DNA of 64,000 nt from positions 415,638 through 479,637 of the forward strand of contig JBMNLN010000001.1 of assembly GCA_050952725.1 (NCBI GenBank). The letters run 5' to 3'. The notes under the pieces were generated by a model. That model saw nothing but the letters and a program-made list of their open reading frames with translations. It ran no database searches and was not told the origin of the DNA. Each line of letters begins with the position of its first letter. The first letter of the stretch is position 1. This DNA is from Bacilli bacterium. Lineage in GTDB: Bacteria; Bacillota_I; Bacilli_A; RFN20; CAG-826. The translations under genes were made by a program, and so were the position numbers. This document shows, in pieces, positions 34,370-53,677 of this stretch.

Positions 34370-35515
34370 TTAAACGCCTTCAAAAATGGCAGAGATTTGT
34401 TTTTTAATTAACCAGTTGCCCGCGCCTAAAATTGTCGCTAATGGCTTTACTTCGCCCGTACCTGAATCGAGTGAATCAGGTCCAGAAACAGCGCTACAAA
34501 GCCGATAATTTGTACAAGAGGCCGGATCGAATTTGGCGGGGGGCATCACGCCAGTATATGCATAACCGCTCGCACCATAATAGGTCCACAAAAACCACCA
34601 TTCACTGCCGATGTGTTGACCTTGCGACTCTGCATAATGGAATTCGGCTTCAGCGATGAATTGAAGCGAACTTCTCGCCACATCAACCATGAATTTATCA
34701 AGAGTCGCGGTCGCCTCTTCGAGGCTGGTATATGTCGCTTTTAATTCATCGGCATAATCGATGATGTTTTTAGCGACAAAAGGATAAGGATTCCACCAGC
34801 GATTATCAGTACTTCCCCAAGTGGTATTTAAGGGGTCGATACTTACCCATTGGGCTGCTGCGGCGGAACCAACAGTAATCCAGTTCCCGCTTTGAATAAC
34901 CGTTCCTAGAATCCCGTTTTTAACGGTCCCATAGAAAGTTGTTAAACTGTTGAGAACTTGCGTATGAATATTCACGCCGTATCTTCCAATCAAGGTGGAA
35001 ATAAATTGGTTTTTGGCAGTTGCATCAAGATGAGCGGTATTTTCATCAACACCAGCCATCACAGCGTTGTAAGCGGCAGCCACATCGGCATCGGTAGCGA
35101 TCATATCCACCGTTCCAATGTCAAAACCGATTTCGTAAGTTTGTTTCGTGGCGTAATACAACTTTGGCGTATAGTATTTGACCTTTGCCATCTCTTGCAA
35201 TTCTTCGGCTTCCGAAGGAAGGTAAGCCAGATGCCCTTTAGCAATCCCGCCACTCATCAGAGCTGGAGTTCCTTCTTCCCAAGTGCCAACGAGTGGTTGA
35301 ACGAGGAATTTCTCGTGGCAAGTACAACAAGCCCAGAATTCCTGGTGACCTGGAACGATTGCTTTAGCCGCTTTGGCTGCGTAGTGATATCCATGGTGTT
35401 GACAACCTTCACCGAAAACGGGAAGATCTTGATGATTCTCTCCCATAAGGGCAACCGAAGCGCTAGCAAAACAAAAAACACTGGTTAACAAAATTAAGAA
35501 ATGTTTCTTTTTCAT
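34370..35515 (-). CDS. Secreted protein with Cys/His-rich N-terminal motif, unknown function
   Basis: Signal peptide (MKKKHFLILLTSVFCFASASVA), then GCQHHGYHY ... HQEFWACCTCHEKF (contains a C-x-x-C-H pattern), then an Ala/Trp-rich domain. Monocistronic. Confidence 0.55.
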   Translation of the reverse strand: MKKKHFLILLTSVFCFASASVALMGENHQDLPVFGEGCQHHGYHYAAKAAKAIVPGHQEFWACCTCHEKFLVQPLVGTWEEGTPALMSGGIAKGHLAYLPSEAEELQEMAKVKYYTPKLYYATKQTYEIGFDIGTVDMIATDADVAAAYNAVMAGVDENTAHLDATAKNQFISTLIGRYGVNIHTQVLNSLTTFYGTVKNGILGTVIQSGNWITVGSAAAAQWVSIDPLNTTWGSTDNRWWNPYPFVAKNIIDYADELKATYTSLEEATATLDKFMVDVARSSLQFIAEAEFHYAESQGQHIGSEWWFLWTYYGASGYAYTGVMPPAKFDPASCTNYRLCSAVSGPDSLDSGTGEVKPLATILGAGNWLIKKQISAIFEGV

Positions 35516-37245: not shown

Positions 37246-38097
37246 ATGCTGGTTAATTTAAAAGAGGTCTTAGCTGAAGGGCGAAAAAGAGGGGTGGCTG
37301 TTCCTTCGATTAACACCCCGAATTTAGAATCGATTCTCGCGGCGATTCAAGAGGCGGAAGCCCAGAATATTCCGCTAATTATCGCTCATGCTGAATTACA
37401 TGAAAGTGTGATTAGCATGGATGTAATCGGTCCGGTGATGCTTCTTTTTGCGCAAAGAGCCAAAGTTCCCGTTTGTGTCCATCTCGATCATGGGGAATCC
37501 TTTGCGGCGTGTAAACGGGCGATTGATCTAGGTTTTACCGGGGTGATGATCGATGCTTCAACTCTTCCTTATGAGGAGAATATCAAGGTGACCAAAAAAG
37601 TTGTTGAATACGCCCATCAACGCGGTGTTGGGGTCGAAGCTGAACTGGGTTGTTTGCCCAATCGCGAAACTGGGGGCGAAACTGTAGGCGATCCCAAACT
37701 TCTATATACGGAACCGCACTTGGTTCCCGATTTTGTTAAAAGAACGGGGGTAGATGCGCTGGCGATTGCTTTTGGTACCGCCCATGGAATCTATAAAGTT
37801 AAACCCGTTTTATCGATTGATGTCATCCGCGCAGTGCGCCAAGTAAGCGATATCTATCTGGTGATGCATGGAGGGAGCGGGTTGTCTCCCGATGATTACC
37901 GCGGGGTAATCGCAGCGGGAATTGACAAGATTAATTACTATACCTATATGGCTTATGCGGGGTATGATGCGGCTAAAAAACTTATTGAAAAAGAGCCGAC
38001 TGGCTTTTATCACGATCTTTGCACCGTCGCAACTCAAGCTCAACAAAAGCGATTGAAAGAAATGTTTACTCTTTTTGCGGAGGGACGTCATGAATAA
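37246..38097 (+). CDS. Class II ketose-bisphosphate aldolase (fructose/tagatose-bisphosphate aldolase family)
   Basis: VHLDHGESF zinc-binding motif, HGGSG near the C-terminus, 283 aa. Confidence 0.85.
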   Translation: MLVNLKEVLAEGRKRGVAVPSINTPNLESILAAIQEAEAQNIPLIIAHAELHESVISMDVIGPVMLLFAQRAKVPVCVHLDHGESFAACKRAIDLGFTGVMIDASTLPYEENIKVTKKVVEYAHQRGVGVEAELGCLPNRETGGETVGDPKLLYTEPHLVPDFVKRTGVDALAIAFGTAHGIYKVKPVLSIDVIRAVRQVSDIYLVMHGGSGLSPDDYRGVIAAGIDKINYYTYMAYAGYDAAKKLIEKEPTGFYHDLCTVATQAQQKRLKEMFTLFAEGRHE

Positions 38098-39037
38098 AGA
38101 TTATTTCTCTCACCTTCGAGATGCAATTGGGGCGACAAGGCTCACTTTTCAAGAGGGCAAAGCCAAAGGTATGGAGGTGATCATCGCCCATAATGGTGTT
38201 TTGACAATGTATATCTTGCCAGAACGCGGCATGGATCTTTATCGCCTGGAATATAAGGGGGAAAACGTCGCTTATATCAGTCCCAATGGTCCAGTAAGCC
38301 CCTTTTATTTAGGGAGTGAAGGAAACCCTTTCGCTGCGACTTTTATCGGCGGTTTTCTTTTAACTTGTGGTTTGGATAATGTGATGGGACCAGAAGAGAA
38401 AAACGGAAAAACATTAGTGCAGCACGGATCATATACCTATATCCCAGCTCGCGATCTAAAAATTGACACTATCGAAGAAGATGAAATACGTTTGGAAATC
38501 AGCGGGAAAATGGAGATGACTGCCATTTTTGGCACAAGAATCACTCTCAAGAGAACGATTATCTTAAACTATGGTGAACCCACATTTACTTTAAGAGATG
38601 AGATTAGTAACGAAGGCGATCAAGAGGATGAATACATGGTGATGTATCATCATAATTTAGGCTACCCCCTCTTTAATGAAAGAAGTGTTCTCAAAGTAGA
38701 TAATCATAAAATAAGCAAAATTAGCGATAATGCAATAATCGATCAATTTGATGTGTTTGATTTGCCTAAGCGCAACATCGAAGAAGAAGTCTTTCTCCAT
38801 TCAATTAATAAAGGAGAGAAAGAACACGTCTCATTAGAAAACGAAAATTATCGATTAACAATTGCCTGGAACCAAAAACATCTTCCCTACATGGTGCAAT
38901 GGAAATGTCTGCAAAAAAACAATTATGTTCTGGGATTAGAGCCAGCGATGTCCCCTTATCCGCAGAAAAAATATCGTCAAATAAAACCAGAAGAAAAACA
39001 CGAATATCAATTAAAATACCAATTTACTGATAAATAA
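38090..39037 (+). CDS. DUF4432/aldose-1-epimerase-like protein
   Basis: ATG (MNKDYFSHL) 5 codons inside the TTG-initiated track ORF, overlapping the aldolase stop. Mutarotase-like beta-sandwich composition. Confidence 0.5.
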   Translation: MNKDYFSHLRDAIGATRLTFQEGKAKGMEVIIAHNGVLTMYILPERGMDLYRLEYKGENVAYISPNGPVSPFYLGSEGNPFAATFIGGFLLTCGLDNVMGPEEKNGKTLVQHGSYTYIPARDLKIDTIEEDEIRLEISGKMEMTAIFGTRITLKRTIILNYGEPTFTLRDEISNEGDQEDEYMVMYHHNLGYPLFNERSVLKVDNHKISKISDNAIIDQFDVFDLPKRNIEEEVFLHSINKGEKEHVSLENENYRLTIAWNQKHLPYMVQWKCLQKNNYVLGLEPAMSPYPQKKYRQIKPEEKHEYQLKYQFTDK

Positions 39038-39073
39038 GACATCTAATCAAAAAATAAAAACATCACCGCGAAG

Positions 39074-39116
39074 CATTGACAATCCGCTCTTTTTTGCGAG
39101 TAATCAAATTGTCAAT
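39074..39116. promoter_or_regulatory. Inverted repeat (9-bp arms) in the leader of the defence-like gene, candidate operator
   Basis: ATTGACAAT (39075..39083) ... ATTGTCAAT (39108..39116), reverse complements 24 nt apart. Not terminator-like because there is no GC stem or T-run. Confidence 0.3.
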
Positions 39117-39296
39117 TATCGCGCGGTTACTTTTGATGAAAAAGTTTTTTAAGGAACACTTAATTTAAAAAACAAACTATTTGTTTTTGAAAAACAAAGA
39201 TAATCGAATGAATAAGAATAACTGACATTAGTTATCACAATTGCAGTTAAGCAACTTTTTCTGGATCAGAAGATCTTGAGCTGCTAATCTAATAGT

Positions 39297-40526
39297 ATGC
39301 TAAAAGAATTATTTGGATTTGTATTAAATAATTACATTAATGAGTACAAAAAAGCGGAAAAATCCGACCCGAACTACAATGTTTTAATGCAGCAAATTCC
39401 CGCAGCGCTTAACGCACTTTTTCCAATGCGCAAGGATTTGCTCATCTCGGGATCTTGTGGGATTGGACAAAAAACCGACTACCCGTGGGTGGCGATTTTT
39501 AATCGTAACCTTACCACCACGGCCCAAAGAGGGCTATATATGGTTTATTTGTTTAAAAAAGATATGTCAGGCTTTTATTTATCTTTGCATCAAGGGATTA
39601 CTTATTTTGAAAAGCGCTTTAAACGTAAAAGATATCAATATGCAAGAAAAGTCGCCGATTATTTCCGTAGTGAAATCGGAGATGAATATTTCGATCGCGG
39701 TGAGATTGATTTACTCGCTTCATCAGCGTCGCTTGGTCGGGGATATCAAGAAACGAATATTCTTTCGAAATACTACGCGAAAGATTCATTCACTAGTGAA
39801 GAAATAGAGAAAGATCTATTGAAAATGCTTGCCATTTACGATGAGTTGGTCGGAGTTCTCGGTGAAGATAACTACGATTATAATAACGCGATTAATAAGA
39901 TTGTCTTTGATGTTCAAGACGCCTTTGAAGATGCAGTTTCAGGGATTGATAATATCAAAAAAGCAATTAGTTCCCCGAAAGATGTCAATGTTATTCGAAC
40001 ACTCCGATATATTGAGCCGCAAGAGAAGAGAACGAAAAAGTACTCCAAGATTAGAAGCACGGGTTCGGTAAGAAAAATCGACTATATTGAGAAAGCGAAA
40101 ACCGATGCCGAAGTTGGACTATTGGGGGAGATGCTCGCTCTTTCTTATGAACGGGAAAGGTTGATTAGGGAAGGTCACAGCGATTTAGCGGATAAAGTTC
40201 GTCATGTCGCCTCGGTTTCGGATGCCTTTGGTTACGATATCATCTCCTATCAATTAATCGGTTTAGAAATGAAAGAAGTTTATATCGAAGTTAAAACGAC
40301 AACCAACAAGTTGGATGTCGATTTTCCGGTGAGCAAAAATGAAGTTTTAACCTCGAACGAGAAGAAAGATCGTTATTGTATCTTTAGAATTTATGATGCG
40401 AAAAGCGTGACTCCTTTGTTTTATAAAGTATTTGGCAAAATTGAAGAACACTTTGAATTAGACCCCGTATCTTATATGGCTAGATATGTTGGTAAAAGAC
40501 AAACAATTAAGCAAATACCGCTATAA
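39297..40526 (+). CDS. DUF3578 (McrB/MrcB N-terminal-like DNA-binding domain) plus DUF3883 fusion protein, candidate modification-dependent restriction/defence protein
   Basis: N-terminal SGSCGIGQKTDYPWVAIFNRN ... GLYMVYLF matches the MrcB_N/DUF3578 core. C-terminal GLLGEMLALSYERERL ... FGYDIISYQ ... YIEVKTTTNKLDVDFPVSKNEV ... YCIFRIYD matches DUF3883. No SD sequence; AT-rich leader. Confidence 0.7.
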   Translation: MLKELFGFVLNNYINEYKKAEKSDPNYNVLMQQIPAALNALFPMRKDLLISGSCGIGQKTDYPWVAIFNRNLTTTAQRGLYMVYLFKKDMSGFYLSLHQGITYFEKRFKRKRYQYARKVADYFRSEIGDEYFDRGEIDLLASSASLGRGYQETNILSKYYAKDSFTSEEIEKDLLKMLAIYDELVGVLGEDNYDYNNAINKIVFDVQDAFEDAVSGIDNIKKAISSPKDVNVIRTLRYIEPQEKRTKKYSKIRSTGSVRKIDYIEKAKTDAEVGLLGEMLALSYERERLIREGHSDLADKVRHVASVSDAFGYDIISYQLIGLEMKEVYIEVKTTTNKLDVDFPVSKNEVLTSNEKKDRYCIFRIYDAKSVTPLFYKVFGKIEEHFELDPVSYMARYVGKRQTIKQIPL

Positions 40527-40540
40527 AACGATGTTGAAGA

Positions 40541-41050
40541 TTAACGATGATTAAAATCAATAAATTTATTTCGGACGTGAAAGTTATCGCATAAGGTCGG
40601 TTCAAGGGCGAGTAAAATGTAATTGGATTTTATCCCCTTGGTTTCAATTCGATAAACATTGTGTTTTATATTTTGATAATCAGCGAAAGCAGTTAGATCG
40701 ATTCTAATTTCAACTTCGTAGTCGTCACCTTCAATTTTGCTTTTGGCAAAGAAAAAGTCTTTTTTGATAAACTCAAGGTGGTCATGGTATTTTTTTGCAA
40801 CAAAAGTCGCACCATTAGGGGCGACTTCAAATTCATAATAGAAGTCTGGATCGCCAAGGTCGAGAAAAACTTCAACCACATCACCGCGATATAATTCATC
40901 GTTATCAATCTCGGAATAACTATTGAGGGAAGAATCAAAGGCTTTAATTTTATAAATTAAAACATCAGCTTCTCTTCGAAAGGAAACCAGCGTTTTAACT
41001 TGAGGTTCTCCCCCAGTGCGACTATCTTGAAGAAGCTTCATATGAATCAT
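40541..41050 (-). CDS. Cytoplasmic CBM9/DOMON-like beta-sandwich protein, unknown role
   Basis: 169 aa, no signal peptide. GDVVEVFLDLGDPDFYYEFEVAPNG resembles the CBM9-like fold. Convergent with the defence-like gene, gap 14 nt. Confidence 0.4.
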   Translation of the reverse strand: MIHMKLLQDSRTGGEPQVKTLVSFRREADVLIYKIKAFDSSLNSYSEIDNDELYRGDVVEVFLDLGDPDFYYEFEVAPNGATFVAKKYHDHLEFIKKDFFFAKSKIEGDDYEVEIRIDLTAFADYQNIKHNVYRIETKGIKSNYILLALEPTLCDNFHVRNKFIDFNHR

Positions 41051-41254
41051 ATTAGAGGAATTTGCGAAGAGATAGAAGATTTTTGAAAAGGTTTTAAATG
41101 TTTAATAAGTTTTTATTCCGCATTCCTTTTGATCACGATTGCGGTAATAATGTCTTAGTTTATAAATTATGACATATAGATTATTTCTCAGAGATGCAAT
41201 TGGAGCGGCTTTTCTTTTTGCAAATGCCTTATAATATTAAGCGAGGTAATTGAT

Positions 41255-41512
41255 ATGAAAAAAATCGTGCTATTAGGCGATTCAATCCGCATGATTGGCT
41301 ATGGAACGATAATCCAAGAATATCTTCCAAAAGACCTTGAAGTTTGGCAAGAATATGAAAAAATAGTCTCCAAAGAAGATGACAATGTCCGCATTGAGAT
41401 GCTTGAAAGATTCGCCTTTTATGAACGCGCTAAAAAGGCTTATGTGGTAATTGCTACGGGTGAAGAGAGAACTTATACAAACATCGTCTTAAAGAAAGGT
41501 GTGATTAAATAA
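41255..41512 (+). CDS. 85-aa protein with SGNH/GDSL block-I-like N-terminus; possible remnant of an SGNH hydrolase gene
   Basis: MKKIVLLGDSI resembles the GDS(I) block of the two SGNH hydrolases at 43396 and 44077 but lacks blocks III and V. A -10-like TATAAT lies upstream. Confidence 0.3.
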   Translation: MKKIVLLGDSIRMIGYGTIIQEYLPKDLEVWQEYEKIVSKEDDNVRIEMLERFAFYERAKKAYVVIATGEERTYTNIVLKKGVIK

Positions 41513-41513
41513 A

Positions 41514-42470
41514 ATGATTGCGATTGGCATTGATATCGGTGGCACCTCGATTAAAGGGGCGGCGATTACAGAGAAAGGAAAAGTATTAGAAGTTTTTTCC
41601 TTACCCGTTATCGCTGGTGATAGCCAAGAAACAACAATTAACAATTTAATTGCCACGGTGAAAAAATACATCGTAGAACAAGGGTTCAAGCAAGAAGAAA
41701 TCCTCGGAATTGGCTTGGGTGTTCCTGGAAGTATCGATTCAGTGCGCGGCTATTGCGATTATTCCAATAATTTAAAATGGTCCAATCTTCCGATTGTGAA
41801 GATGTTTGAAAAAGAATTTGCTTTGCCGATTAAAATTACCAATGATGCCAATGCGGCTGCCTTAGGTGAAGCGAAATTTGGTGCAGGCAGAAAATTTAAA
41901 AACATGATTCTTCTCACCTTGGGCACCGGTGTCGGCGGCGGGATTATCATCGATGGTAAACTCTATGAAGGAAACGCGGGGAAAGGGGCCGAATTAGGCC
42001 ACACTGTCACCAAAATGAATGGGAGAAAATGCACTTGTGGTCGCAAAGGTTGCTTAGAAGCATATGCTTCGGCGACTGGATTGATTTTTGATACTAAACA
42101 AGCAATGAAAAAAGATAACAAATCTTTAATGTGGAAAATAAGTAAAGAACTCGGCATCATCGATGCTCGCGTGGCCTTTGAGGCGGCAAAACAAGGCGAT
42201 CAAACCGCACAAAAGGTCGTGGATAATTACATTATGTATTTAGGAGAAGGGCTATTGAACTTCTTTAATATTTTCCGTCCTGAGGCCGTGGTACTCTCGG
42301 GAGGAATTGCAAATCAAGGCGAATATCTCTTCGGTCGCTTAGATGCGTATTGCCAAGAAAGAAAATACGGCTTTGAATGTACGCCTGCAGTTAAAATTCT
42401 CGGTTCAGAATTAGGCTATGATTCAGGCAAGATTGGGGCAGCAGCCTTGTTTTTCCAAGGAGATTTTTAA
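41514..42470 (+). CDS. glcK: ROK-family glucokinase
   Basis: IGIDIGGTSIKGA ... GIGLGVPG ... zinc motif CTCGRKGCLEAY. 318 aa. Confidence 0.85.
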   Translation: MIAIGIDIGGTSIKGAAITEKGKVLEVFSLPVIAGDSQETTINNLIATVKKYIVEQGFKQEEILGIGLGVPGSIDSVRGYCDYSNNLKWSNLPIVKMFEKEFALPIKITNDANAAALGEAKFGAGRKFKNMILLTLGTGVGGGIIIDGKLYEGNAGKGAELGHTVTKMNGRKCTCGRKGCLEAYASATGLIFDTKQAMKKDNKSLMWKISKELGIIDARVAFEAAKQGDQTAQKVVDNYIMYLGEGLLNFFNIFRPEAVVLSGGIANQGEYLFGRLDAYCQERKYGFECTPAVKILGSELGYDSGKIGAAALFFQGDF

Positions 42471-43384: not shown

Positions 43385-43418
43385 AAAAGGCTCCATTATT
43401 TGAAGCCTTTTTTGGTAA
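43384..43418. terminator. Bidirectional terminator between convergent manA and the SGNH hydrolase
   Basis: AAAAAGGCT-ccattatttga-AGCCTTTTT plus T-run. The loop overlaps the stop of the minus-strand gene. Confidence 0.5.
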
Positions 43419-44043
43419 GATAAGCGATTAGTTCATCAGCGATGACTTGATGGCCTTTATCGTTAGGATGAAGACCATCATGAAAGAATTCACTTGGTTG
43501 CTGGGTATCGGGCATGGGAATTCCTTCAATTACGAGATAATCAATTCCATAATGTCCACAGACTTGTTTGATGGCCTGGCGATATTCTTTTAAGCGAGGT
43601 ACCGTGCGGTTAAGAGGATGGTGATCACTTTTGGGATTATTTTCGTTATAGCGATACAGCGGTAAGATAAAGCAAATTTTTTCTTTGGGAAGCTTACCGA
43701 CAATCAACAGATAATCGATAAGTTGTTTAAGCGCTCCATAAAAAGTGTAAGGAGTAACATCACCAAACTTTCCTAAAGGGGCATCACCATGTCCCCAGTC
43801 ATTGGTGCCTCCAAACACAAAAAGCATGTCGCAAGTATAGTCAATCCATCGCGCTCTTAAAATAAAATCTTCATCAGGATTAGTGGGAACATGAACCCTT
43901 TGACGGGCAATCCGCGTACCCGAAACCCCATAATTTAATTCTTTAGCATTGAAATGTTTACAAACTAATTCGGGATATCTTTTGTTGTTGATTTTAAAAA
44001 CTAAATTATCAGTAATTGAGTCGCCTAAGAATACTATTTTCAT
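43396..44043 (-). CDS. SGNH/GDSL hydrolase (probable carbohydrate acetylesterase)
   Basis: MKIVFLGDSITDN (block I), GTND (block III), DGLHPNDKGH (block V). Confidence 0.8.
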   Translation of the reverse strand: MKIVFLGDSITDNLVFKINNKRYPELVCKHFNAKELNYGVSGTRIARQRVHVPTNPDEDFILRARWIDYTCDMLFVFGGTNDWGHGDAPLGKFGDVTPYTFYGALKQLIDYLLIVGKLPKEKICFILPLYRYNENNPKSDHHPLNRTVPRLKEYRQAIKQVCGHYGIDYLVIEGIPMPDTQQPSEFFHDGLHPNDKGHQVIADELIAYLTKKGFK

Positions 44044-44729: not shown

Positions 44730-46010
44730 TCATATCTTCACATTTAGAATATCGAAAACAGTAGCATTGGAGTTATGGAAAGTTTCTGCACCATTAAGAG
44801 CAATGCGGAGCACTAGATATAATTTGTCTTTTTCAATGAAGAATGAAGGGTATTGAACCCCGTTTAAATCTTTATCAAGATGAGTGATATCATCGATTAT
44901 TTTTACTTCATCCCATTTTTCTAAGTCGCAAGACCGATATAATTTCATTACTTGTCTTGGGAAGCAAGTGGTGTTTCCCATCGCATAATAATAACCTTGA
45001 TATTTTTCTATGTAGAACTTGCACCACCCACACTCCATATCTATTGTTTTTTCAAAGCGAAGTTCGTTTGATTGCAGGTCATAATGCAAAACAAGAGCGG
45101 TTTGATAAGCAAAGCGCAGAAAGACATATATTTGATTATTATATTCGACAATATTTCCTTCCTCCGCATAGCGCATCGTTTGATCACCGCCCCAAGCAAA
45201 ATCGGGAACAATTTCATTGGAAATGCGCCACGAAGCAGGATGCATTAATCCAGAGCGAATATTACCGCTTGCCACTTTAACATGGGATTCATTGTCTCCA
45301 ACCACGCCGCGGAAAGCAAAAACAATATATTTATCGTCGACTAATATTTGAGTAGGTGATGTTCTACCTTCTTCAACAATGGTTACCGATTCTCCCCAAT
45401 TAAAACCATCGTTAGATTTAATTAGGTCAATGGAGTTATCGAATAAATTGCTGCCATAGAAATAAAGTTCATTGTTAACTACAAATAATCTTCCCCATTG
45501 GGAGGGGACAAAATCGCAGACAAATTGCCAAGATTTTCCTTCATCTTCTGAGACAAATAACATGGTCGCGGTATGACCATTGTCTTTGGTTCCACCATTT
45601 TTAAAGATGTCCATCGTCACCCATAATTTTCCTTGAAAACGGATGATAAAAGGTGAACCTAAGAAGTTCCCACTATGGGCATATTGGGTTTCTTCTTTGT
45701 CGACATAATTGATAACATCATGGAGAAAATCCCCAGTATGAAATTTTCTAATTGCGCTTTTGTTCTTTTTAGAGATGATTTGAACTGTTAACTCCGACTG
45801 TTCAGGGAGATGATTAATCGTAACGCTTTTTTCTTGCGTTGTTACTTTCTGAAATATCTTTTTATTTTTGCGAACTATAATAGTGAAGTCTTGATCTTCA
45901 CTTGCAAAGTTGACAGTCACTGAATTTTTACCAGGCGCTAAACGGTTAATAAAAATGCCATATTCAAAATCATCTTGTTTATAGGGTTTATAACACTTTA
46001 AGGGATTCAT
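44730..46010 (-). CDS. BNR/Asp-box beta-propeller protein (sialidase-like fold), cytoplasmic
   Basis: Asp-box SEDEGKSW and other propeller-like repeats. No signal peptide. 426 aa. Confidence 0.45.
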   Translation of the reverse strand: MNPLKCYKPYKQDDFEYGIFINRLAPGKNSVTVNFASEDQDFTIIVRKNKKIFQKVTTQEKSVTINHLPEQSELTVQIISKKNKSAIRKFHTGDFLHDVINYVDKEETQYAHSGNFLGSPFIIRFQGKLWVTMDIFKNGGTKDNGHTATMLFVSEDEGKSWQFVCDFVPSQWGRLFVVNNELYFYGSNLFDNSIDLIKSNDGFNWGESVTIVEEGRTSPTQILVDDKYIVFAFRGVVGDNESHVKVASGNIRSGLMHPASWRISNEIVPDFAWGGDQTMRYAEEGNIVEYNNQIYVFLRFAYQTALVLHYDLQSNELRFEKTIDMECGWCKFYIEKYQGYYYAMGNTTCFPRQVMKLYRSCDLEKWDEVKIIDDITHLDKDLNGVQYPSFFIEKDKLYLVLRIALNGAETFHNSNATVFDILNVKI

Positions 46011-46118
46011 ATGTTTATTTTCTCATTTAATTTTTTGAGAATTCTCCTTTTTGAAAATAATTGGGATTTGTGCAGGAATTTCCTCTAAAACCGCATAGTT
46101 TTCTAGATTATAGGGAGA

Positions 46119-47561
46119 TTATGCAATTCGATATGGACAATCGCCGTCCTCGTTTTCATAACTTTCACAGTCAAGGCATGTATAGGAATATAAATGTGCG
46201 CGGAACATCTTGAATTTAAAACGATGATTTTTCTTTGACGGCAATTCGGCCATGTCTTTGGCCCAAGTCACTCGGTAACGAAGTTCATCGATGGGTTCGA
46301 CTTTACAATCATCAAAGCCAAAACCTTCGTAAGGTGTATTTTCTTCGTTGGTAATCGCTACTTTGATATACGCTTTTAGCCCGATATCAGCATTGAGAAT
46401 CAGTCCTTTGCCAACGTTTAGGGGAATGGTGGTAAATCCTCCATGTGATTCTGCATAAAGAGAAGTATAACCATCCTCGCGATAAATCATTCGCCAAGTA
46501 CCAGGTTTTCCCTCGGTGCCGAAACCACCACCATTATGACCGCCTTTAAATTTTGTTAAATAGTGGATGTATTTATTGTCCTCGGCGACAAAACCAAAAC
46601 TGACATAATGCCCCATATAACCATCCGTTTCTTGATTGATTAACGGCATATTCTCGTGCGGGATGGTCCAGGTATTTAAGTCTCTAGAGAAGGCAATAAC
46701 TGGTTTTACTGTATCTTCGGTGCGATGAAAAATTGAGGGCATCATGACAAATGCCGTTTCTCCAGTTCCGGGCCAAGCCCAAAAAGGCGAAGTATAGTAA
46801 TCAGTATCTGGTTTATCATTCATGGAACCATTCAACAAAATTGTTCCTTGATTCCAATTGATAAAATCTGGACTTTCAAAAGCCACAATCGTCCGTCTAA
46901 TCAAATGATTGGAAAATTGCGCTTTGGTCATGGCCACATATTTGCCGCTTTCTTTTAAATAAATCAAACCCGGGAAAGAGTCGCCTCCTTTAAAGGCCTG
47001 ACGATAGTTTTTCCAATGAATTCCATCCGCAGAGGTCGCAGTGTAATTATCAACGCTTTCCACGACTTTACCGCTGTATTTCACTCGGGTAAAGAGCAGT
47101 TTGAAACGCTCATTTTTCGGCGCGTGCTCATCATAGTAAACAATATCTCCTTCGTCGACCCAAGGCATTCCTGGTTTCCCTTCCATGCGCACGATATTGT
47201 TTTCTTTCTTGCCTTGGAATTCCACCAAACCTAAATTGGGTTTGACCCAATTAACCCCGTCATCACTAGTTGCATAGCAAAGCATAATCCATTCGGGAGT
47301 TCGATTGATGGCCTCATACCACATATGATATTGACCATTGATTTTTATTACCGAACTCATGCCGGCTCTACCGATATCCCAAGGTTTATCAGGCTCGAGG
47401 ATTGGTGTGGACTCAAGGAAAGGTTTATGAGCGACGATTTTCACTCCATAAGGACTGCCATCTAAAGGTTGATATCCAGTTAGATCTACACCATAACCAG
47501 GATCGACTTCATACCAATCGACAAAGACGTGTTTTTTATTTTTAACAGTTTTTTTCGCCAT
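46119..47561 (-). CDS. Five-bladed beta-propeller glycoside hydrolase/phosphorylase-like protein (GH130/GH43/GH32 clan), cytoplasmic
   Basis: 480 aa with repeated W/D-rich blade motifs and no signal peptide. C-terminal Cys cluster CLDCESYENEDGDC. Family assignment uncertain. Confidence 0.4.
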   Translation of the reverse strand: MAKKTVKNKKHVFVDWYEVDPGYGVDLTGYQPLDGSPYGVKIVAHKPFLESTPILEPDKPWDIGRAGMSSVIKINGQYHMWYEAINRTPEWIMLCYATSDDGVNWVKPNLGLVEFQGKKENNIVRMEGKPGMPWVDEGDIVYYDEHAPKNERFKLLFTRVKYSGKVVESVDNYTATSADGIHWKNYRQAFKGGDSFPGLIYLKESGKYVAMTKAQFSNHLIRRTIVAFESPDFINWNQGTILLNGSMNDKPDTDYYTSPFWAWPGTGETAFVMMPSIFHRTEDTVKPVIAFSRDLNTWTIPHENMPLINQETDGYMGHYVSFGFVAEDNKYIHYLTKFKGGHNGGGFGTEGKPGTWRMIYREDGYTSLYAESHGGFTTIPLNVGKGLILNADIGLKAYIKVAITNEENTPYEGFGFDDCKVEPIDELRYRVTWAKDMAELPSKKNHRFKFKMFRAHLYSYTCLDCESYENEDGDCPYRIA

Positions 47562-47575
47562 AAGGATATCTCCAA

Positions 47576-49312
47576 TTATTTTAAATCTTGCGTAGCTTTG
47601 ATTTGATTTGCATCAACTTTGGCTTCGTGGTCGTGATCGAGCAAACCATTTACTTCCTGTTCCACATCACTGACTTGGGTGTAGCAATAACCCGCCAAAT
47701 AAGGAAGGTTTTGCAGAGATTTTATTAAAGAACAGACACGTTCGATATATTGTTTATCATTTACGACAGCTTCCCCATAGCCCCAATTTTTATCATCCAC
47801 ATTCTTTTTAAAGGCGGTGCCCCCGAATTCAGAGAAAATAATCGGCTGCCCTTGATAATGATAACCTTGAGCAAAAGCCCCTTTCCAATGCGACTGCCAA
47901 ACTTCGGTTAAAGCTTTTTCTTGGTCTTGGTAGTAGGAGAAGAGTTTATCAGCATCTTGTTCGTAATGATGAAACGTAATAATATCTGAAATTGTATGTT
48001 CCCAACCATCATTAGAGATGACAAACCGATACGGGTCATAAGCTTTGGTCAATTGATACGCACGAACCGTAAAATCTTGTATTTCTTGATTAGTTAAGAT
48101 ATCTCTAATCCCCCATGATTCATTAAAGAGGGTCCAAGTAATAACACAGGGGTGATTATAATTTTGTTTCAAGATGTGAGGTAATTCATGCATGTAGTTA
48201 TCCATCATCGCTTGCGAGAATTCATAAGCGGATGGAACTTCTACCCAGGTAATAAACCCAAGGACATCCGCCAGAAAAAGAAATCTTTCTTCCTCGATTT
48301 TCTGGTGTTTCCGGCATCCGTTAAAACCAAAAGCCTGCATTTTTTTAATATCGTCCTCTAACGCTTGAACATTGGGCGCAGTTAAGTTGGTGTGTTTCCA
48401 GTAACCTTGATCAAGGACGAGTTTTTGATAGAATTCTTGACCGTTAAGATAAACCTTAGCCTTTTTAGCATTTATGGAACGGAAACCACAATAAGAGAAA
48501 ACCTGATCGATAATTTGCCCACCTTCTTTAATGATGAACTCTAAATCGTATAAAAAAGGATGCTCAGGTGACCAAGGAGTCACCTGCTTCAAAGAAGTAG
48601 CAATTTTAATAACGTCTTTGTCGATGATTGTTTCATTAGATGCAATGAGGACATTATCCGATAAAACCCTCACCATAAATGTTTTTCCTACTGCATTATC
48701 CGTTTCGACTTCCAACTCTAAAGTTTTAGTGGTTAAATGCGGATCAATTCTCACGTGCGAGATGTAACTTAAAGGCACTTTTTCCAACCACACATCTTTA
48801 TAGATGCCAGTGGTGGGAACGTAAAAACACTCATAACTTTCATCGCGACTTCGCTGTTTGCCGCGAAGTTTTTCCTTGGAATAGTCATCTTCACATTTAA
48901 TCACTAGTAAATTGCGACCTTCATGTACAAAGTCAGTAATTTCAAGGGTGTGTCTAAAATAAGCCCCCTTGGTTTTACCGACAAGTTTTCCATTGAGGAA
49001 GATTTTACCGATGTAATCAAGTCCTTCTAGATGCAGAAGAAGCCGTTCATTCTCATTTTTAGAAATTTCAAGATATCTTTGATACCAGAGATAGTCGTGC
49101 CGAGTTTGATCGTTGACTAAAGAAGCAGCGGTTTCAAAAGTGAAAGGAACAAGAATATCTTTTTGCTTATTAAAACCATGATTGTAATTGAGGGATTCGC
49201 CCTTATTTTGATCATCAAAGGCGAAACCCCATAATCCGTTTAAAAGCACAAAATTCTCGCGGAAAAGCGATGGTCGCGGACATTTTAATCGCTTGTTGTA
49301 GAGGCTGATCAT
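47576..49312 (-). CDS. Glycoside hydrolase family 2 enzyme (beta-mannosidase/beta-galactosidase type), cytoplasmic
   Basis: GH2 sugar-binding, Ig-like and TIM-barrel order. Acid/base region NHPCVITWTLFNESWG. 578 aa. Confidence 0.75.
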   Translation of the reverse strand: MISLYNKRLKCPRPSLFRENFVLLNGLWGFAFDDQNKGESLNYNHGFNKQKDILVPFTFETAASLVNDQTRHDYLWYQRYLEISKNENERLLLHLEGLDYIGKIFLNGKLVGKTKGAYFRHTLEITDFVHEGRNLLVIKCEDDYSKEKLRGKQRSRDESYECFYVPTTGIYKDVWLEKVPLSYISHVRIDPHLTTKTLELEVETDNAVGKTFMVRVLSDNVLIASNETIIDKDVIKIATSLKQVTPWSPEHPFLYDLEFIIKEGGQIIDQVFSYCGFRSINAKKAKVYLNGQEFYQKLVLDQGYWKHTNLTAPNVQALEDDIKKMQAFGFNGCRKHQKIEEERFLFLADVLGFITWVEVPSAYEFSQAMMDNYMHELPHILKQNYNHPCVITWTLFNESWGIRDILTNQEIQDFTVRAYQLTKAYDPYRFVISNDGWEHTISDIITFHHYEQDADKLFSYYQDQEKALTEVWQSHWKGAFAQGYHYQGQPIIFSEFGGTAFKKNVDDKNWGYGEAVVNDKQYIERVCSLIKSLQNLPYLAGYCYTQVSDVEQEVNGLLDHDHEAKVDANQIKATQDLK

Positions 49313-51081
49313 AAGACGATATCCTCAAAGAGAGGATTGCTTTGAATTTCAGCAATCGCTGCCTCATCATAAAGTTCTTTCAAACCGATAATTTGGGTCG
49401 AAGCTGCCGCCCATGACCCCATATAAACGCCAAACATATACGAATCACCTTCATGAAAGCGCGGTTGCAGGGTTGCAGGATCTTTCGGCATGAAGAAAGT
49501 TGTATCAGTATAGAACACGGTCACTAACACCTCATCGATATAGACATAGAAACAATCGTTAGCAAGAACCACGGTTAAATCGCGATCTTGATCGTTGATT
49601 AAGGTCGGATTATCATCTTTGGCCACCTTATCATAGTAAAGAGCTTCACATTGTGGCGCGTCGCTAATTTCGGCAGCCCGGGCATAGGCGTGTTGATCGA
49701 TATTGTTGGAAGTTTTTAAACCTTTGACATGAAGACCGATATCCATGGCTACCCAATCACCAGGTTTTCTTAATCCGACCGTATGGCCTTCAGGTAAGGT
49801 AGTCCCATTGGTAAAAGTAATTCCGCCACAGGGTTGACTCCCACCAAGGGTGATGATTTCTTTGGGAACTCGAACTGAGAAAACAGCGGTGGTCGCAAAA
49901 GTCCCACACATTAAATAGCCATAAGGAACCGAGTTATCCAATTGTTTGGTAAGTTGGTAAACCCCATTGGTTCGCCGCATAAAGCTGCAAATCCGCGATG
50001 AAACCCGATAGCAAACCCGAAGTTCGAGTTCGCCATCATTAACTCCAGTAACCATTGAGTCGGAGGCGGCATATTCATAATCATCTTTATAACCATCCAC
50101 GGGAAGATTGGCGTCACTGGGGAGATTTTTCTCTTCCTCTGACAAGGTGATCACATCATAAAAGTCTGCAGTTAAACCCGTAATCTGCTTAATCAGTTGA
50201 TAATTGGCGTCGGCATCCATCGCGTAGTATGAAATGGTATAGGTCGGATTAGAGATGAAGTATAAACGAAAGACCGCTTCATCATTAGCCCGCGCATAAC
50301 CTTCGGTGTTGCTTTTTAATTTCATAAAGACATAACCAGGTTTGTCGGGCACAGTGATTTCAATTTTTGCATTGTAGGTTGCCATTTTGGTTTCGCGACT
50401 AACTAAAACCTCATCGAGATAAGTTTCAATGTAATATTTGACGTTTTCCGCTGTAGTCGCGTAAGAAGTAATCAATGCGCCCGCGGCTTCGCGCACTTCA
50501 GCAGTGAGAAATTCATTATCCACGGTTTCTTCCGCTAAATTAATTAAGGAAGTGGAGTTGTGATTGGCTTGGGCGAGGCGATGGACGTTAACCCCAAATA
50601 AATTAGCTTTGATAAAGGAAATGCCAGTGTATTCTAAATCGACTGCCCCGTATAACCGCACATCAAATTTGCCATTTACTTCGACATTATGCGCGGTTAG
50701 TTTGGTGAGCGAATCCACGCTATAAATTGTTACTTTTCCCGTCTCGGTTTGATTAATCACATAAGTTGGATTACTTCCAAAGACCGATTCGACCGTTACT
50801 TCGCCATATTCGGCGACATAATAGGTGGGGAAAACCAGCGTTCCCAAGGAGATATTTTGATATTTTTGTTTAATTTGTTCGTATTCTCTTCTTAGCATAT
50901 AGCCGTGGAATGAAAGTTCTTGCTCGGCAGTAAAGCGCACTCCCTTTTCCATGACAAATTCGCAGTCATAGAAACTATCGTAATTTTCATCGATGACGGC
51001 AACTGCATTTCGCGGTCCACTTGTGGCCATAGAAGTAAGTAGAAGACCCGAAACCAAGATGGTCAAAGCAATCTTTTTCAT
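49309..51081 (-). CDS. Secreted 590-aa protein, unknown function
   Basis: Signal peptide without lipobox Cys (MKKIALTILVSGLLLTSMATSG). Overlaps the GH2 start. Confidence 0.5.
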   Translation of the reverse strand: MKKIALTILVSGLLLTSMATSGPRNAVAVIDENYDSFYDCEFVMEKGVRFTAEQELSFHGYMLRREYEQIKQKYQNISLGTLVFPTYYVAEYGEVTVESVFGSNPTYVINQTETGKVTIYSVDSLTKLTAHNVEVNGKFDVRLYGAVDLEYTGISFIKANLFGVNVHRLAQANHNSTSLINLAEETVDNEFLTAEVREAAGALITSYATTAENVKYYIETYLDEVLVSRETKMATYNAKIEITVPDKPGYVFMKLKSNTEGYARANDEAVFRLYFISNPTYTISYYAMDADANYQLIKQITGLTADFYDVITLSEEEKNLPSDANLPVDGYKDDYEYAASDSMVTGVNDGELELRVCYRVSSRICSFMRRTNGVYQLTKQLDNSVPYGYLMCGTFATTAVFSVRVPKEIITLGGSQPCGGITFTNGTTLPEGHTVGLRKPGDWVAMDIGLHVKGLKTSNNIDQHAYARAAEISDAPQCEALYYDKVAKDDNPTLINDQDRDLTVVLANDCFYVYIDEVLVTVFYTDTTFFMPKDPATLQPRFHEGDSYMFGVYMGSWAAASTQIIGLKELYDEAAIAEIQSNPLFEDIVL

Positions 51082-51082
51082 A

Positions 51083-53677
51083 TTAAATCACCTCCGGATA
51101 AAGGGCGCTAAAATCGGATAGGAATTGTAAAGCCTCATGGTTGTAGAACTCTTTGACGATTTTGGCTTTAATGCCAGAACTTTGGTTGTTGGTGAAGTTA
51201 ACCCCAAACATCACGGGGAGATCATTGGCGAATGAATACTCGTAAGAGGTACCATCTTGATCTTTAAAACTATAGAGGAAGCGATTGGAATTAAGAGCCT
51301 CGCTATACATGAAAGCGCCGTCAAGATAGTAGTATAGCACGTTATCTTTTAAGATGACCGTGAATTCACGTGTATGCGGGTTAGTTCCACCAATTGCGGC
51401 CTCAGCGGTGAATTTGTGGGTAATGAAATCCAGTGGACCGAGGTTAGTTTGAAGGCCGGTGTGCGACATCCCGACGTGAACTCCATAATACTCGTTGCCA
51501 GGATTATTGTATGGCCGAACCATGTTATTGTTAAATGGTTCAACGATTCCTGTGATGTCACTAGACATTAAATCGCCTTGTGTCATGATGACGCCGACGT
51601 TATAACTCCATCCGGGATAACCCCAAGAGCCAATTTCTGAGGCGGATTCAATTTCAACCGAATAGATCGCAGTATTGGCAAAAGTTCCGCTATATTCATA
51701 GCCGCTATGCTTGAAGTTGTTCGCCCTCGAATAGTAGACATATCCACCATCTTCAAACACCTTATCGATATTGAGATTCATACATAGGTTCGGTGCGGTA
51801 AATGGATCGAGTTCAATGCGCGCCCCCGCATCAGCAGGGACCTCAACTTGCCCGACAAGAATCGGGAAATTAGATTGTTCGATATAGAGATCATAGACGC
51901 CGCTGACTACTAACTGCTTACCACCAATTTCGTAGGTGCCAGCTTTTGGAAGAACCATCACCACCCCACCAGCTGATCCAGTCATACTCGAGAAATAGAG
52001 GCGTTTATCGTTTCCTTTAAACGAGAACTTCGCGTTAGAAATCGGTAACCCCGTTTTTTCATCGACAATCGAGGTAAGGATGCGTGAAGTCGCAGGGGGT
52101 AATTGTTCAAACTTCACATTGATGATGAGTTTTTCGGTGACATTTGCGATGAAAAGTTGACCATCGATGACATTATTTAAATAGTAATCCAAATTAACTA
52201 CTTCACCATTACGGGTGATAATTTGACCACTTGCATCGGTGACATAGAAGTCTGACAAGATGTTCCCGCTAATTGGAGCGACGGTCACAGTGGTCCCCTT
52301 ACCCGAGACGACTGCGCTCGGCGTCGCAACGGCGGTGCCATCACCAGTGACTTCGACCTTAATCGGATAGGCATGTTTCATGATTTCCTGTTCTAGACCT
52401 TCATCATCACCTTCGTAATCGATCGCGTAATAATCAAAATAGAGCGCTTCGCAGCCCAAAGTATAAAGACCAGGGCAACTACCGCCTTCCCCAAAGTGAG
52501 CGATGTTTTCCGAACCTAGATAATTATCATTGATAATGTAATGGAAAGTTAGACCATCGCGAATCACTTTCATGGTGATGATTTGGTAACCGGGGTTGGT
52601 CACCGAAAAGAGTGTCTTATCAACCCAACCGGCGCGTCCATTATTATCAAGGCTTAAATGGTGAACAGCCCATGAGGGGGAATTATTGAGTACATCAACC
52701 CCTGTGATGTGGAAGGTATCAAAAATAATTTCATTTTGGGCGTTGCAGACCCCCGCACTTGGATAAGTGTCATGAATCCCCCCGATAATCTTCATCTTTG
52801 TTTCAAACACGTATTGGGTCGAATAGATATCTTTAAAGAAAATCGCTTGGGAGTGCGGGCCATCGGAAGTCACTGAGCCGATATCGAGTTTGGAAAGGTC
52901 CCAACCATCCGATTTGGAGATTCCATTTTTGGCGTTGCCAAGAATCGCCCCAGGAAGATCGGCATTAATATATCCATCTGGTCCAAAGCGCCCACTGGTG
53001 TTGTGGCGCCCGTTATCTTCAAAGAAGAAGAGCGGACGAACCCAGTCATTAGCAGCACTTTTGGCCGCTTCCACATAGCGATAATGCGGGTTGACGCGGA
53101 TGACATCGGGATAATCTTGGCCCGCGGGAATCTCGACATGAAGTTCATCCCACGACATAAAGAACTCCACCGTCATCACCGATGCCCCTTGACCAATCGG
53201 CTGATCGGTGACAGCCTTGGCGACAAAGCGGTTTAAATTTCGTGACACGGCGTTATAGGGATCGACAAAAATATTAAAAACTTCGGTCGAGTGGGTATAC
53301 ACTTGGTCAACTTGTTTAATATTGAACCAAAAACTTGAATTATTTTGGAAAAAGAGACGAGAAAACCATTTAATTCCAGGATCTCTGGCAATCCCCGCCA
53401 GATAAAACCCGCGCTTCGTGAAATAAGAGGTAAAGGATAATGAAATCCCCTTATCGGTATGGTGCAACCATTTCCGATTTTGCCAAACAGGTTCATCTAG
53501 ATAACCATCGATTAACATATAGGGATCATATTCATCGACGTTTTCCGGTTCATAAACCCATCCGTATTCGTGATCATTTTCCACCAGAAGCAAATTGTCT
53601 TTGCTGGTGCATCCTCCTAAAGCGGTGAGTGCCAACAAGCACGTTAGTGAAAGAAATAGAGTTTTGGTCTTTTTCAT
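51083..53677 (-). CDS. Surface lipoprotein, 864 aa, unknown function
   Basis: Lipobox LTALGGC. No catalytic motif recognised. Confidence 0.55.
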   Translation of the reverse strand: MKKTKTLFLSLTCLLALTALGGCTSKDNLLLVENDHEYGWVYEPENVDEYDPYMLIDGYLDEPVWQNRKWLHHTDKGISLSFTSYFTKRGFYLAGIARDPGIKWFSRLFFQNNSSFWFNIKQVDQVYTHSTEVFNIFVDPYNAVSRNLNRFVAKAVTDQPIGQGASVMTVEFFMSWDELHVEIPAGQDYPDVIRVNPHYRYVEAAKSAANDWVRPLFFFEDNGRHNTSGRFGPDGYINADLPGAILGNAKNGISKSDGWDLSKLDIGSVTSDGPHSQAIFFKDIYSTQYVFETKMKIIGGIHDTYPSAGVCNAQNEIIFDTFHITGVDVLNNSPSWAVHHLSLDNNGRAGWVDKTLFSVTNPGYQIITMKVIRDGLTFHYIINDNYLGSENIAHFGEGGSCPGLYTLGCEALYFDYYAIDYEGDDEGLEQEIMKHAYPIKVEVTGDGTAVATPSAVVSGKGTTVTVAPISGNILSDFYVTDASGQIITRNGEVVNLDYYLNNVIDGQLFIANVTEKLIINVKFEQLPPATSRILTSIVDEKTGLPISNAKFSFKGNDKRLYFSSMTGSAGGVVMVLPKAGTYEIGGKQLVVSGVYDLYIEQSNFPILVGQVEVPADAGARIELDPFTAPNLCMNLNIDKVFEDGGYVYYSRANNFKHSGYEYSGTFANTAIYSVEIESASEIGSWGYPGWSYNVGVIMTQGDLMSSDITGIVEPFNNNMVRPYNNPGNEYYGVHVGMSHTGLQTNLGPLDFITHKFTAEAAIGGTNPHTREFTVILKDNVLYYYLDGAFMYSEALNSNRFLYSFKDQDGTSYEYSFANDLPVMFGVNFTNNQSSGIKAKIVKEFYNHEALQFLSDFSALYPEVI

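Follow-up and report, generated by a model that had tools for sequence, protein, structure and literature searches.

The 64,000-nucleotide (nt) stretch of Bacilli bacterium contig JBMNLN010000001.1 analysed here, hereafter the window, contains a complete open reading frame (ORF), 39297..40526 on the + strand, that encodes a 409-residue single-chain fusion of an McrB-N-type modified-cytosine reader and a DUF3883 PD-(D/E)XK nuclease. The product of this restriction gene is probably a nucleoside triphosphate (NTP)-independent Type IV modification-dependent restriction endonuclease, distinct from McrBC. The assignment draws on the computed domain identities, the predicted fold, conservation of the pocket and catalytic residues, the lack of partner genes, and the defence-island and plasmid contexts of homologues.

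Domain architecture of the fusion protein

Pfam assigned residues 9–185 (39321..39851, +) to MrcB_N (PF12102, also DUF3578 or ADAM; 151 bits, E 3e-44, positions 2–182 of the 183-position profile), a modified-cytosine reader, and residues 277–372 (40125..40412, +) to NOV_C/DUF3883 (PF13020; 59 bits, E 4e-16). An earlier description of this DNA made without database searches (the sequence-only reading) had proposed exactly this order of an N-terminal McrB-N domain and a C-terminal DUF3883 domain, and both the Pfam matches and the modelled fold agree with it. The peptides quoted there for the two domains were all located: SGSCGIGQKTDYPWVAIFNRN (residues 51–71) in the reader, and IEVKTT (330–335), FPVSKNEV (343–350) and FRIYD (363–367) in the nuclease. 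No AAA_5/AAA domain of the type forming the McrB GTPase was found in the protein by Pfam, and no NCBIfam model matched it. The start codon is supported by the aligned N-termini of 26 homologues, and an identical protein is present in an NCBI ‘Bacilli bacterium’ metagenome-assembled genome (MAG), where it is annotated as ‘MrcB family domain-containing protein’.

The reader retains the flipped-base pocket of McrB

In crystal structures of McrB, the pocket for the flipped 5-methylcytosine (5mC) is lined on one side by W49, L68 and Y117 and on the other partly by Y64; 5mC is distinguished from cytosine through van der Waals contacts of the methyl group with Y64 and L68, while S38 and W49 clamp phosphates (Sukackaite 2012, PMC3424535). 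In the HMMER alignment, residues S38, G40, G42, P48, W49, G62, Y64, L68 and D72 of E. coli McrB correspond to S53, G55, G57, P63, W64, G79, Y81, L85 and D89 of the present protein, with S53, G55 and G57 making up the ‘finger’ loop of the reader. All nine mapped positions are invariant in 26 homologues (46–77% identity), and across 63 representatives that are 27–60% identical, W64, Y81, L85 and S53 each reach at least 90% conservation. The pocket residues W64, Y81 and L85 are encoded at 39486-39488, 39537-39539 and 39549-39551 (+), respectively.

An AlphaFold2 model computed with the 26 homologues had a mean predicted local distance difference test score (pLDDT) of 82.8 and a predicted template modelling score (pTM) of 0.57. 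The best structural match of the reader was DNA-bound McrB-N, with 17% identity over 128 aligned residues of E. coli McrB-N, and Foldseek also retrieved McrB-N complexes with DNA containing 5mC, 5-hydroxymethylcytosine (5hmC), N4-methylcytosine (4mC) and 5-formylcytosine. Searching the PDB by sequence with a family profile retrieved McrB-N as well (E 2e-4). The reader has the McrB-N/ADAM fold with an intact flipped-base pocket, and that it flips a modified cytosine is a well-supported inference.

The nuclease domain and linker

The nuclease motif consists of E278, D314 and E331-V-K333, and the codons of its putative catalytic residues lie at 40128-40130 (E278), 40236-40238 (D314), 40287-40289 (E331) and 40293-40295 (K333) on the + strand; E349 and R364 are also conserved. 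In the 63-sequence alignment E278, E331, K333 and R364 are invariant, and D314 and E349 at least 90% conserved. Within the model, E278 is located in the helix formed by residues 263–291, D314 directly precedes the strand 315–321, and E331-V-K333 lies in the strand 324–334. The top Foldseek match of the domain was R.SwaI and its fold matches that of PD-(D/E)XK enzymes, with an E...D...ExK active site that is intact. Calling DUF3883 ‘predicted nuclease or effector-like’, as had been done from the letters, understated the case, as the family was placed in the PD-(D/E)XK superfamily by Steczkiewicz et al. in 2012, and YenY4I and the McaZI group use it as their catalytic domain.

The two domains are joined by a linker (residues 186–276; 39852..40124, +) that is mostly helical in the AlphaFold secondary structure and contains a loop of low pLDDT at approximately residues 241–262. 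From about residue 206 the linker is conserved jointly with the nuclease module: the match to the PADLOC profile PDC-S36 begins at residue 206, and the BLASTP alignment to a DUF3427–DUF3883 protein at residue 235.

Proposed mechanism and points against it

From these features a substrate, a mode of cleavage, dimerisation and a defence phenotype were inferred. The reader would scan incoming DNA from the minor groove and flip a modified cytosine (5mC, possibly 5hmC or 4mC as for E. coli McrB-N) into the W64/Y81/L85 pocket. Once bound, it would tether the DUF3883 nuclease for a cut nearby, most likely as a dimer and in both strands. Host DNA would be spared if it lacks that modification, and phages or plasmids with modified cytosines would be destroyed or attenuated. 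Transcribed from its own extended −10 promoter abutting the ATG, as a leaderless mRNA, the gene would constitute a portable one-gene cassette. The earlier proposal of a one-gene, type-IV-like module is strengthened by the conserved pocket and catalytic residues, by the islands and plasmids in which homologues occur, and by PADLOC matches to defence and candidate-defence nucleases.

Several observations weigh against the restriction endonuclease described above. The position of the McrB intercalating residue Y41 is occupied by I56, and the family varies there (I, K, N, V, Q), while no residue could be matched securely to Y117; the prediction therefore does not extend to the sequence context or to the precise modification recognized. 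Variability at Y41 among McrB homologues had already been noted by Sukackaite et al. (PMC3424535). The pTM of only 0.57 leaves the single domains of the model credible, although not their relative placement. The tested DUF3427–DUF3883 relatives cut poorly in vitro, and a partner NTPase may be encoded elsewhere in the genome. No experimental study of an MrcB_N–DUF3883 fusion was found in the literature searched. Finally, a composition test for foreign origin was negative, with z-scores of −0.6 for guanine-plus-cytosine content (GC) and −0.1 for GC at third codon positions (GC3), and codon usage ranked 13 of 43 in the window.

The lack of a conserved intercalating tyrosine also fits a reader with another target, such as a hypermodified base, N6-methyladenine, damaged DNA or RNA; the protein would then be a defence or toxin nuclease, possibly causing abortive infection by acting on host nucleic acid. 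McrB N-terminal domains differ in specificity, some McrBC branches are predicted to target RNA, and the identity to E. coli McrB-N amounts to only the 17% given above. Such a target is nevertheless quite unlikely, as the pocket is pyrimidine-sized, its methyl-contacting W, Y and L residues are invariant or nearly so, the closest structural match is a DNA-bound McrB-N, and the nuclease module is common to enzymes shown to act on 5mC or 5hmC DNA.

Genomic context of the gene and its homologues

The scan of the window combined Pfam on the larger ORFs with precomputed Pfam results for three further genes (44730-49312), and six neighbouring ORFs were also searched with PADLOC. The ORFs with matches are devoted to carbohydrate catabolism and transport with a few housekeeping genes, and include FGGY kinases, aldolases, an arabinose isomerase, GH2, GH42 and GH43 hydrolases, ABC transporters, a ROK kinase, a mannose-6-phosphate isomerase and SGNH esterases. 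No methylase, helicase, ATPase/NTPase partner or other defence gene was found among the scanned ORFs. McrC (DUF2357 plus a PD-DxK nuclease) is absent from the adjoining positions, which are held by a DUF4432 epimerase-like gene and a 169-residue ORF, neither matching PADLOC.

All flanking ORFs at 25 full-length homologue loci were clustered. The commonest neighbour was a MazG-like gene (4 of the 25 loci), followed by HsdR and AAA_14–DUF4143 (3 each) and by the SLFN-g3 helicase, DUF2971 and Fic (2 each), and no recurrent methylase was found beside these loci. The family has no obligate or conserved partner gene, and the description of the gene as solitary, without helicase, ATPase or methylase, holds both for the scanned ORFs of the window and for the absence of a recurrent partner in the survey. 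At one locus the homologue is situated amid a type I restriction-modification shufflon, an SLFN-g3/DUF2075 helicase, and MazG-like, DUF2971, DUF4238 and Fic genes; at another it adjoins HNH, Fic, helicase and HsdR genes. Solitary homologues also occur, directly after mutS2–uvrC in one lineage and beside cobW/hypA genes in another.

The homologue P0074 is located in a dense defence island (L010 1-17200) together with SLATT–SMODS (CBASS-like), SLFN_AlbA_2/HATPase_c_4 and two AAA_14–DUF4143 ATPases, and the same island holds an RNase III-like gene, EndoU, Fic and T5orf172. The four loci with a MazG-like gene (L003 9222-12251, L043 168-2338, L027 and L047) vary in its orientation; the SLFN-g3/DUF2075 helicase accompanies it in two of them (L003 and L043) and DUF2971 in one (L003). 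The MazG-like and helicase genes probably form a separate defence module. An association with DUF2075 has been noted for McaZI as well (Lutz et al. 2019, PMC6765204).

This association bears on whether the protein is no more than half of a two-component system, supplying sensor and nuclease and requiring an NTPase or helicase in trans (of DUF2075/SLFN type, or an NTPase as in PD-T4-1) and by itself binding DNA while hardly cutting it. The McaZI-group enzymes show tight binding of modified DNA with weak cleavage, McaZI adjoins a DUF2075 NTPase, and PD-T4-1 is treated in the literature as a nuclease–NTPase system; the helicase and MazG-like pair at L003 and L043, and the MazG-like gene at four of the 25 loci, would fit such a partnership. 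However, at least 21 of the 25 loci lack that neighbour within about 4 kb, some copies are solitary among housekeeping genes, the scanned ORFs of the window yielded no NTPase or helicase, and McaZI, BwiMMI and EfaL9I attenuated phage T4gt when expressed alone in E. coli. Dependence on a partner in trans is regarded as unlikely, though not negligibly so.

Family distribution and a shared nuclease module

A word-indexed search returned 458 homologues, nearly all of about 401 residues and with both domains. An exhaustive HMMER search of 1.84 billion cluster representatives gave 5843 matches at E ≤1e-3 and 158 at E ≤1e-30; the best 150 matches are mostly 380–420 residues long and aligned end to end, and the top matches include at least 100 clusters at 50% identity. 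NCBI labels members of the family only as MrcB-family or DUF3578 domain-containing proteins. Judged from these matches, the MrcB_N–DUF3883 family is old and large and is not a one-off fusion. Members of about 30% identity occur in Listeria and on plasmids of Limosilactobacillus, Loigolactobacillus and Staphylococcus, and every one carries the annotation ‘DUF3578 domain-containing protein’. Viral contigs gave only two matches, both to the C-terminal domain alone, and the family is therefore not typically phage-borne; a phage collection held two Listeria records of about 31% identity and distant Vibrio matches.

The same N-terminal domain (36–41% identity) is carried by six longer AAA_5 (McrB-type) proteins, one of which also has an EVE domain, as well as by one HNH protein and one longer DUF3883 protein. 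Conversely, residues 235–393 are 36% identical (BLASTP, E 9e-23) to the C-terminal module of a 343-residue B. thuringiensis plasmid protein (L018:3464-4495) which is DUF3427 plus NOV_C by Pfam and shares the GE, D, EVK, S-NE and YR motifs. The alignment describes the MrcB_N–DUF3883 family as a sensor swap on a shared DUF3883 nuclease module. The PADLOC matches are likewise all confined to the C-terminal module: PDC-S36 aligned over profile positions 88–278 of 280 with residues 206–396 (E 4.6e-38), leaving its first 87 positions unmatched, PD-T4-1 aligned only over positions 213–377 of 383 (E 5e-19), and TmtA gave a weaker match to only its last ~300 profile positions. No description of the PDC-S36 candidate was found in the literature searched. 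The B. anthracis ‘McrB2/3’ genes, also covered by that search, are of canonical McrB/McrC types. The sequence-only reading had called the architecture largely uncharacterised, which stands in so far as the literature searched holds no study of the fusion; the family is nonetheless large, and its nuclease module is homologous to that of tested DUF3427–DUF3883 enzymes.

A conserved predicted promoter abuts the start codon

Comparative sequence analysis predicted a promoter at 39262..39290 (+), consisting of a −35 element TGGATC (39262-39267), a 17-nt spacer, a TGn extension (39282-39284) and a −10 element TAATCT (39285-39290). The −10 element ends 6 nt before the ATG, so that transcription would begin on the A of this codon or beside it, and the mRNA of the restriction gene is predicted to be leaderless. 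No Shine-Dalgarno (SD)-like motif is present in the 25 nt before the ATG, as had been noticed earlier, and a leaderless mRNA would account for its absence; most neighbouring genes have GGAG or GAGG. Precedents exist in the C-protein/restriction operons of PvuII, AhdI and Esp1396I, which give leaderless transcripts.

The 35 nt before the ATG are conserved at the DNA level in homologues from unrelated contexts. Across 16 loci whose proteins are 45–77% identical, the consensus is tTtGATC-N4-GATCtTAAGCTGcTAAGCT-N6-ATG, and mean pairwise identity is 0.82 in the element (−37..−7) against 0.35 at −54..−38; the corresponding values within codons are 0.46 for third positions and 0.77 for first and second positions. 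The 845 kb of DNA retrieved contain the core TAAGCTGNTAA[GAT]CT 17 times, in every case 6 nt before the start of a homologue. More generally the geometry is a −35 element T(T/G/A)GAT(C/T/A), a 17-nt spacer, TGn, a −10 element TAA(G/T/A)CT, 6 nt (8 at one locus) and the start codon, and this extended −10 arrangement without an SD is present in 22 of the 24 homologue loci at 44% amino acid identity or more. The exceptions, L010 and L034, keep the −35 TTGATC, the 17-nt spacer and TGn, with a near-consensus −10 TATACT and a 24–26-nt leader with an SD. Below 42% identity, homologues lack the promoter and their SDs are of the ordinary kind. One locus (L028) has the abutting promoter with a GTG start, which is unusual for a leaderless message.

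Two other interpretations of the conserved block were rejected. A coding sequence or upstream ORF is contradicted by a spacing to the ATG that differs by 2 nt at locus L012 and by an in-frame stop at −12. An RNA structure is contradicted by the lack of covariation in the conserved tetramers and by the extent of the block, which is exactly that of a −35 to −10 promoter. A generic promoter and terminator scan performed no better than on shuffled sequences, and overlooked the conserved promoter because its −10 element has only three of six consensus bases. Rfam gave nothing credible over 38900-41600; its single match scored 23 bits, far short of the gathering score (115).

The stop codon of the upstream gene at 39037 leaves a 259-nt intergenic gap before 39297, with a GC of 0.29–0.32. 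The length and AT-richness previously ascribed to a leader of the gene are thus correct, but the gap is not a transcribed leader, as the promoter abuts the ATG. The 9-bp inverted repeat reported there also exists (ATTGACAAT at 39075-39083 and ATTGTCAAT at 39108-39116); it lies 180 nt further upstream and is better read as part of a terminator hairpin of the upstream operon. RNA folding places it in an imperfect hairpin at ~39061..39127 (+), starting 24 nt past the upstream stop and followed by a T-rich stretch. With a folding free energy of −23.9 kcal/mol, the hairpin is only modestly more stable than shuffled sequences (z −1.9), and it was not picked up by a simple terminator scan; it is probably the terminator of the upstream FGGY–aldolase–DUF4432 operon, and not part of the restriction gene.

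GATC and AGCT sites in the promoter

The window promoter carries GATC at 39264-39267 and 39272-39275 and AGCT at 39279-39282, and in the subclade of this gene the spacer has an invariant GATC-N4-GATC and two AGCT motifs. Other clades with the same promoter geometry (L005, L006, L033 and L041) are without these motifs, and RNA polymerase therefore does not require them. Of the 16 palindromic tetranucleotides, the most avoided in the window are CCGG (observed/expected 0.49), GATC (0.51, z −9.2) and AGCT (0.57, z −5.4). Underrepresented palindromes are commonly taken to reflect restriction-modification pressure, and the avoidance of these three suggests past exposure to restriction systems of those specificities. 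One attractive but post hoc and improbable idea is that the promoter responds to methylation or serves as an operator for the enzyme. If correct, an acquired cytosine methylase for GATC or AGCT (M.Sau3AI or M.AluI type) would methylate the promoter and turn the 5mC-dependent nuclease off, and the methylation-sensitive promoter would act as an inbuilt safeguard that keeps a one-gene Type IV system from self-restriction.

Evidence for horizontal movement

The closest relatives of the restriction gene are 77% identical, and one of 74% identity is found in a Cloacimonadaceae MAG, from another phylum. The best homologue of the flanking DUF4432 gene is only 61–66% identical, depending on the search. 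The restriction gene therefore has closer relatives than its neighbour, which points to horizontal movement. In three relatives that keep the FGGY–(FucI)–aldolase–DUF4432 operon, no restriction gene follows DUF4432, and a convergent DUF4886 gene or a GH2 gene is found instead.

The proposal that the gene forms an inserted variable islet is plausible, but insertion at this site is not demonstrated. The relatives with the same upstream operon are only 57–61% identical and non-syntenic on the downstream side too, composition is typical, and a search for direct or inverted flanking repeats gave only short matches at chance level. No transposase, integrase or other mobility gene was found in the scanned window ORFs. 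Among GTDB genomes only two loci were available for comparison (66% and 31% identical), neither syntenic, with the host lineage too sparsely sampled for strain-level presence or absence.

These results also bear on a housekeeping or regulatory role, for example as a repair nuclease of the lineage that reads endogenous methylation and is conserved at its site. The typical GC, GC3 and codon usage, the lack of a transposase, integrase or flanking repeat, and the lineage with a homologue directly after mutS2–uvrC are compatible with such a role. It is highly improbable, however, given the three relatives with the operon and without the gene, the closer kinship to proteins as far away as another phylum, homologue contexts that change from lineage to lineage, with defence islands and plasmids among them, and a conserved promoter that travels with the gene from context to context. 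A restriction endonuclease remains the preferred reading of the gene.

Downstream, the convergent ORF 40541..41050 (−) lies 14 nt from the restriction-gene stop, as first described. The gene remnant proposed at 41255..41512 is real but odd. This 85-residue ORF (+) matches, through its residues 24–84, only positions 77–138 of the 138-position RbsD/FucU profile, and its first 11 residues (MKKIVLLGDSI) resemble the N-terminal GDS block of SGNH/GDSL esterases such as 43396-44043 (8 of 9 identical). It carries a GAGG SD, and the source assembly also calls a gene here. The ORF is probably a deletion scar fusing two genes, a reading that would fit local rearrangement beside the restriction gene.

Neighbouring genes and other ORFs of the window

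The convergent neighbour 40541-41050 (−), of 169 residues, has only a sub-threshold CBM9_2 match (20.6 bits, cut-off 25). It has no PADLOC match and no obvious SD, and is not kept beside restriction-gene homologues. The upstream DUF4432 gene (38075-39037, +) has a mechanical ORF start at TTG 38075. An ATG at 38090 is preceded by GGAGG and yields the 315-residue product annotated in the source genome, and is the likelier start; from there the gene overlaps the 3′ end of the aldolase gene (38097) by 8 nt.

Several window ORFs have no Pfam match (E 1e-4 or precomputed): 34370-35515, 44730-46010, 46119-47561, 49309-51081 and 51083-53677 on the − strand, and 977-2023, 2099-3064 and 20449-22053 on the + strand. 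PADLOC gave no match for 34370-35515, 44730-46010 and 46119-47561. Embedded as they are in sugar-utilisation clusters, these ORFs may encode uncharacterised glycoside hydrolases or binding proteins.

Implications

If the prediction is true, this large family would put the best-understood prokaryotic 5mC reader into a compact, NTP-independent enzyme, and such enzymes are useful as epigenetic reagents. The family, with its plasmid and chromosomal copies, would also account for the barriers that Bacillota such as lactobacilli, Listeria and staphylococci present to transformation with DNA carrying Dcm or other methylation. Sensor swapping on a shared module aids the annotation of DUF3883 proteins generally. 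The conserved abutting promoter implies that the gene travels as a self-expressing cassette, which bears on how a potentially toxic nuclease is expressed after transfer.

Comparison with known systems

Relative to EcoKMcrBC, the protein lacks the AAA+ GTPase motor and the McrC partner, has I56 in place of Y41, and has its nuclease, of the DUF3883 PD-(D/E)XK family rather than McrC, fused directly to the reader. With a fused nuclease and without the motor, guanosine triphosphate-driven translocation between two distant sites is not expected.

McaZI, BwiMMI and EfaL9I are of the same design: these are also single chains with an N-terminal modified-cytosine reader and a C-terminal DUF3883 nuclease, and are solitary or located in defence islands. 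The linker-plus-nuclease module is homologous, a comparison made through the B. thuringiensis protein of the same architecture and not the three tested enzymes. The three enzymes bound 5mC and 5hmC DNA, attenuated the 5hmC phage T4gt and cleaved poorly in vitro; toxicity was seen for McaZI and EfaL9I in Dcm+ E. coli and not in the Dcm− host, and an NTPase partner was suspected by the authors for this group (Lutz et al. 2019, PMC6765204). Their reader is, however, DUF3427 (SauUSI-type), whereas here it is MrcB_N with no DUF3427 by Pfam. YenY4I (PUA–DUF3427–DUF3883) shares the C-terminal DUF3883 PD-(D/E)XK domain and, in its own activity, modified-cytosine-dependent cleavage without a helicase; it differs in having two reader domains of other families and in being rare, in contrast to the large family described here.

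PDC-S36, PD-T4-1 and Tiamat TmtA have the DUF3883-type nuclease module in common with the present protein, but PD-T4-1 and TmtA are larger, as proteins or as systems, and include NTPase parts that the present protein lacks. MspJI, SRA–HNH, EVE–HNH, wH fusions and END nucleases likewise fuse a modified-base reader to a nuclease, with the parts freely recombined; their reader and nuclease families are different, and MrcB_N–DUF3883 is not among the described combinations found. The predicted gene product is not a member of the DUF3427–DUF3883 group, its reader being different, and would work like both that group and McrBC. The enzyme would be a predictable variant of a modular reader–nuclease scheme already known, leaving current concepts unchanged and extending that established scheme.

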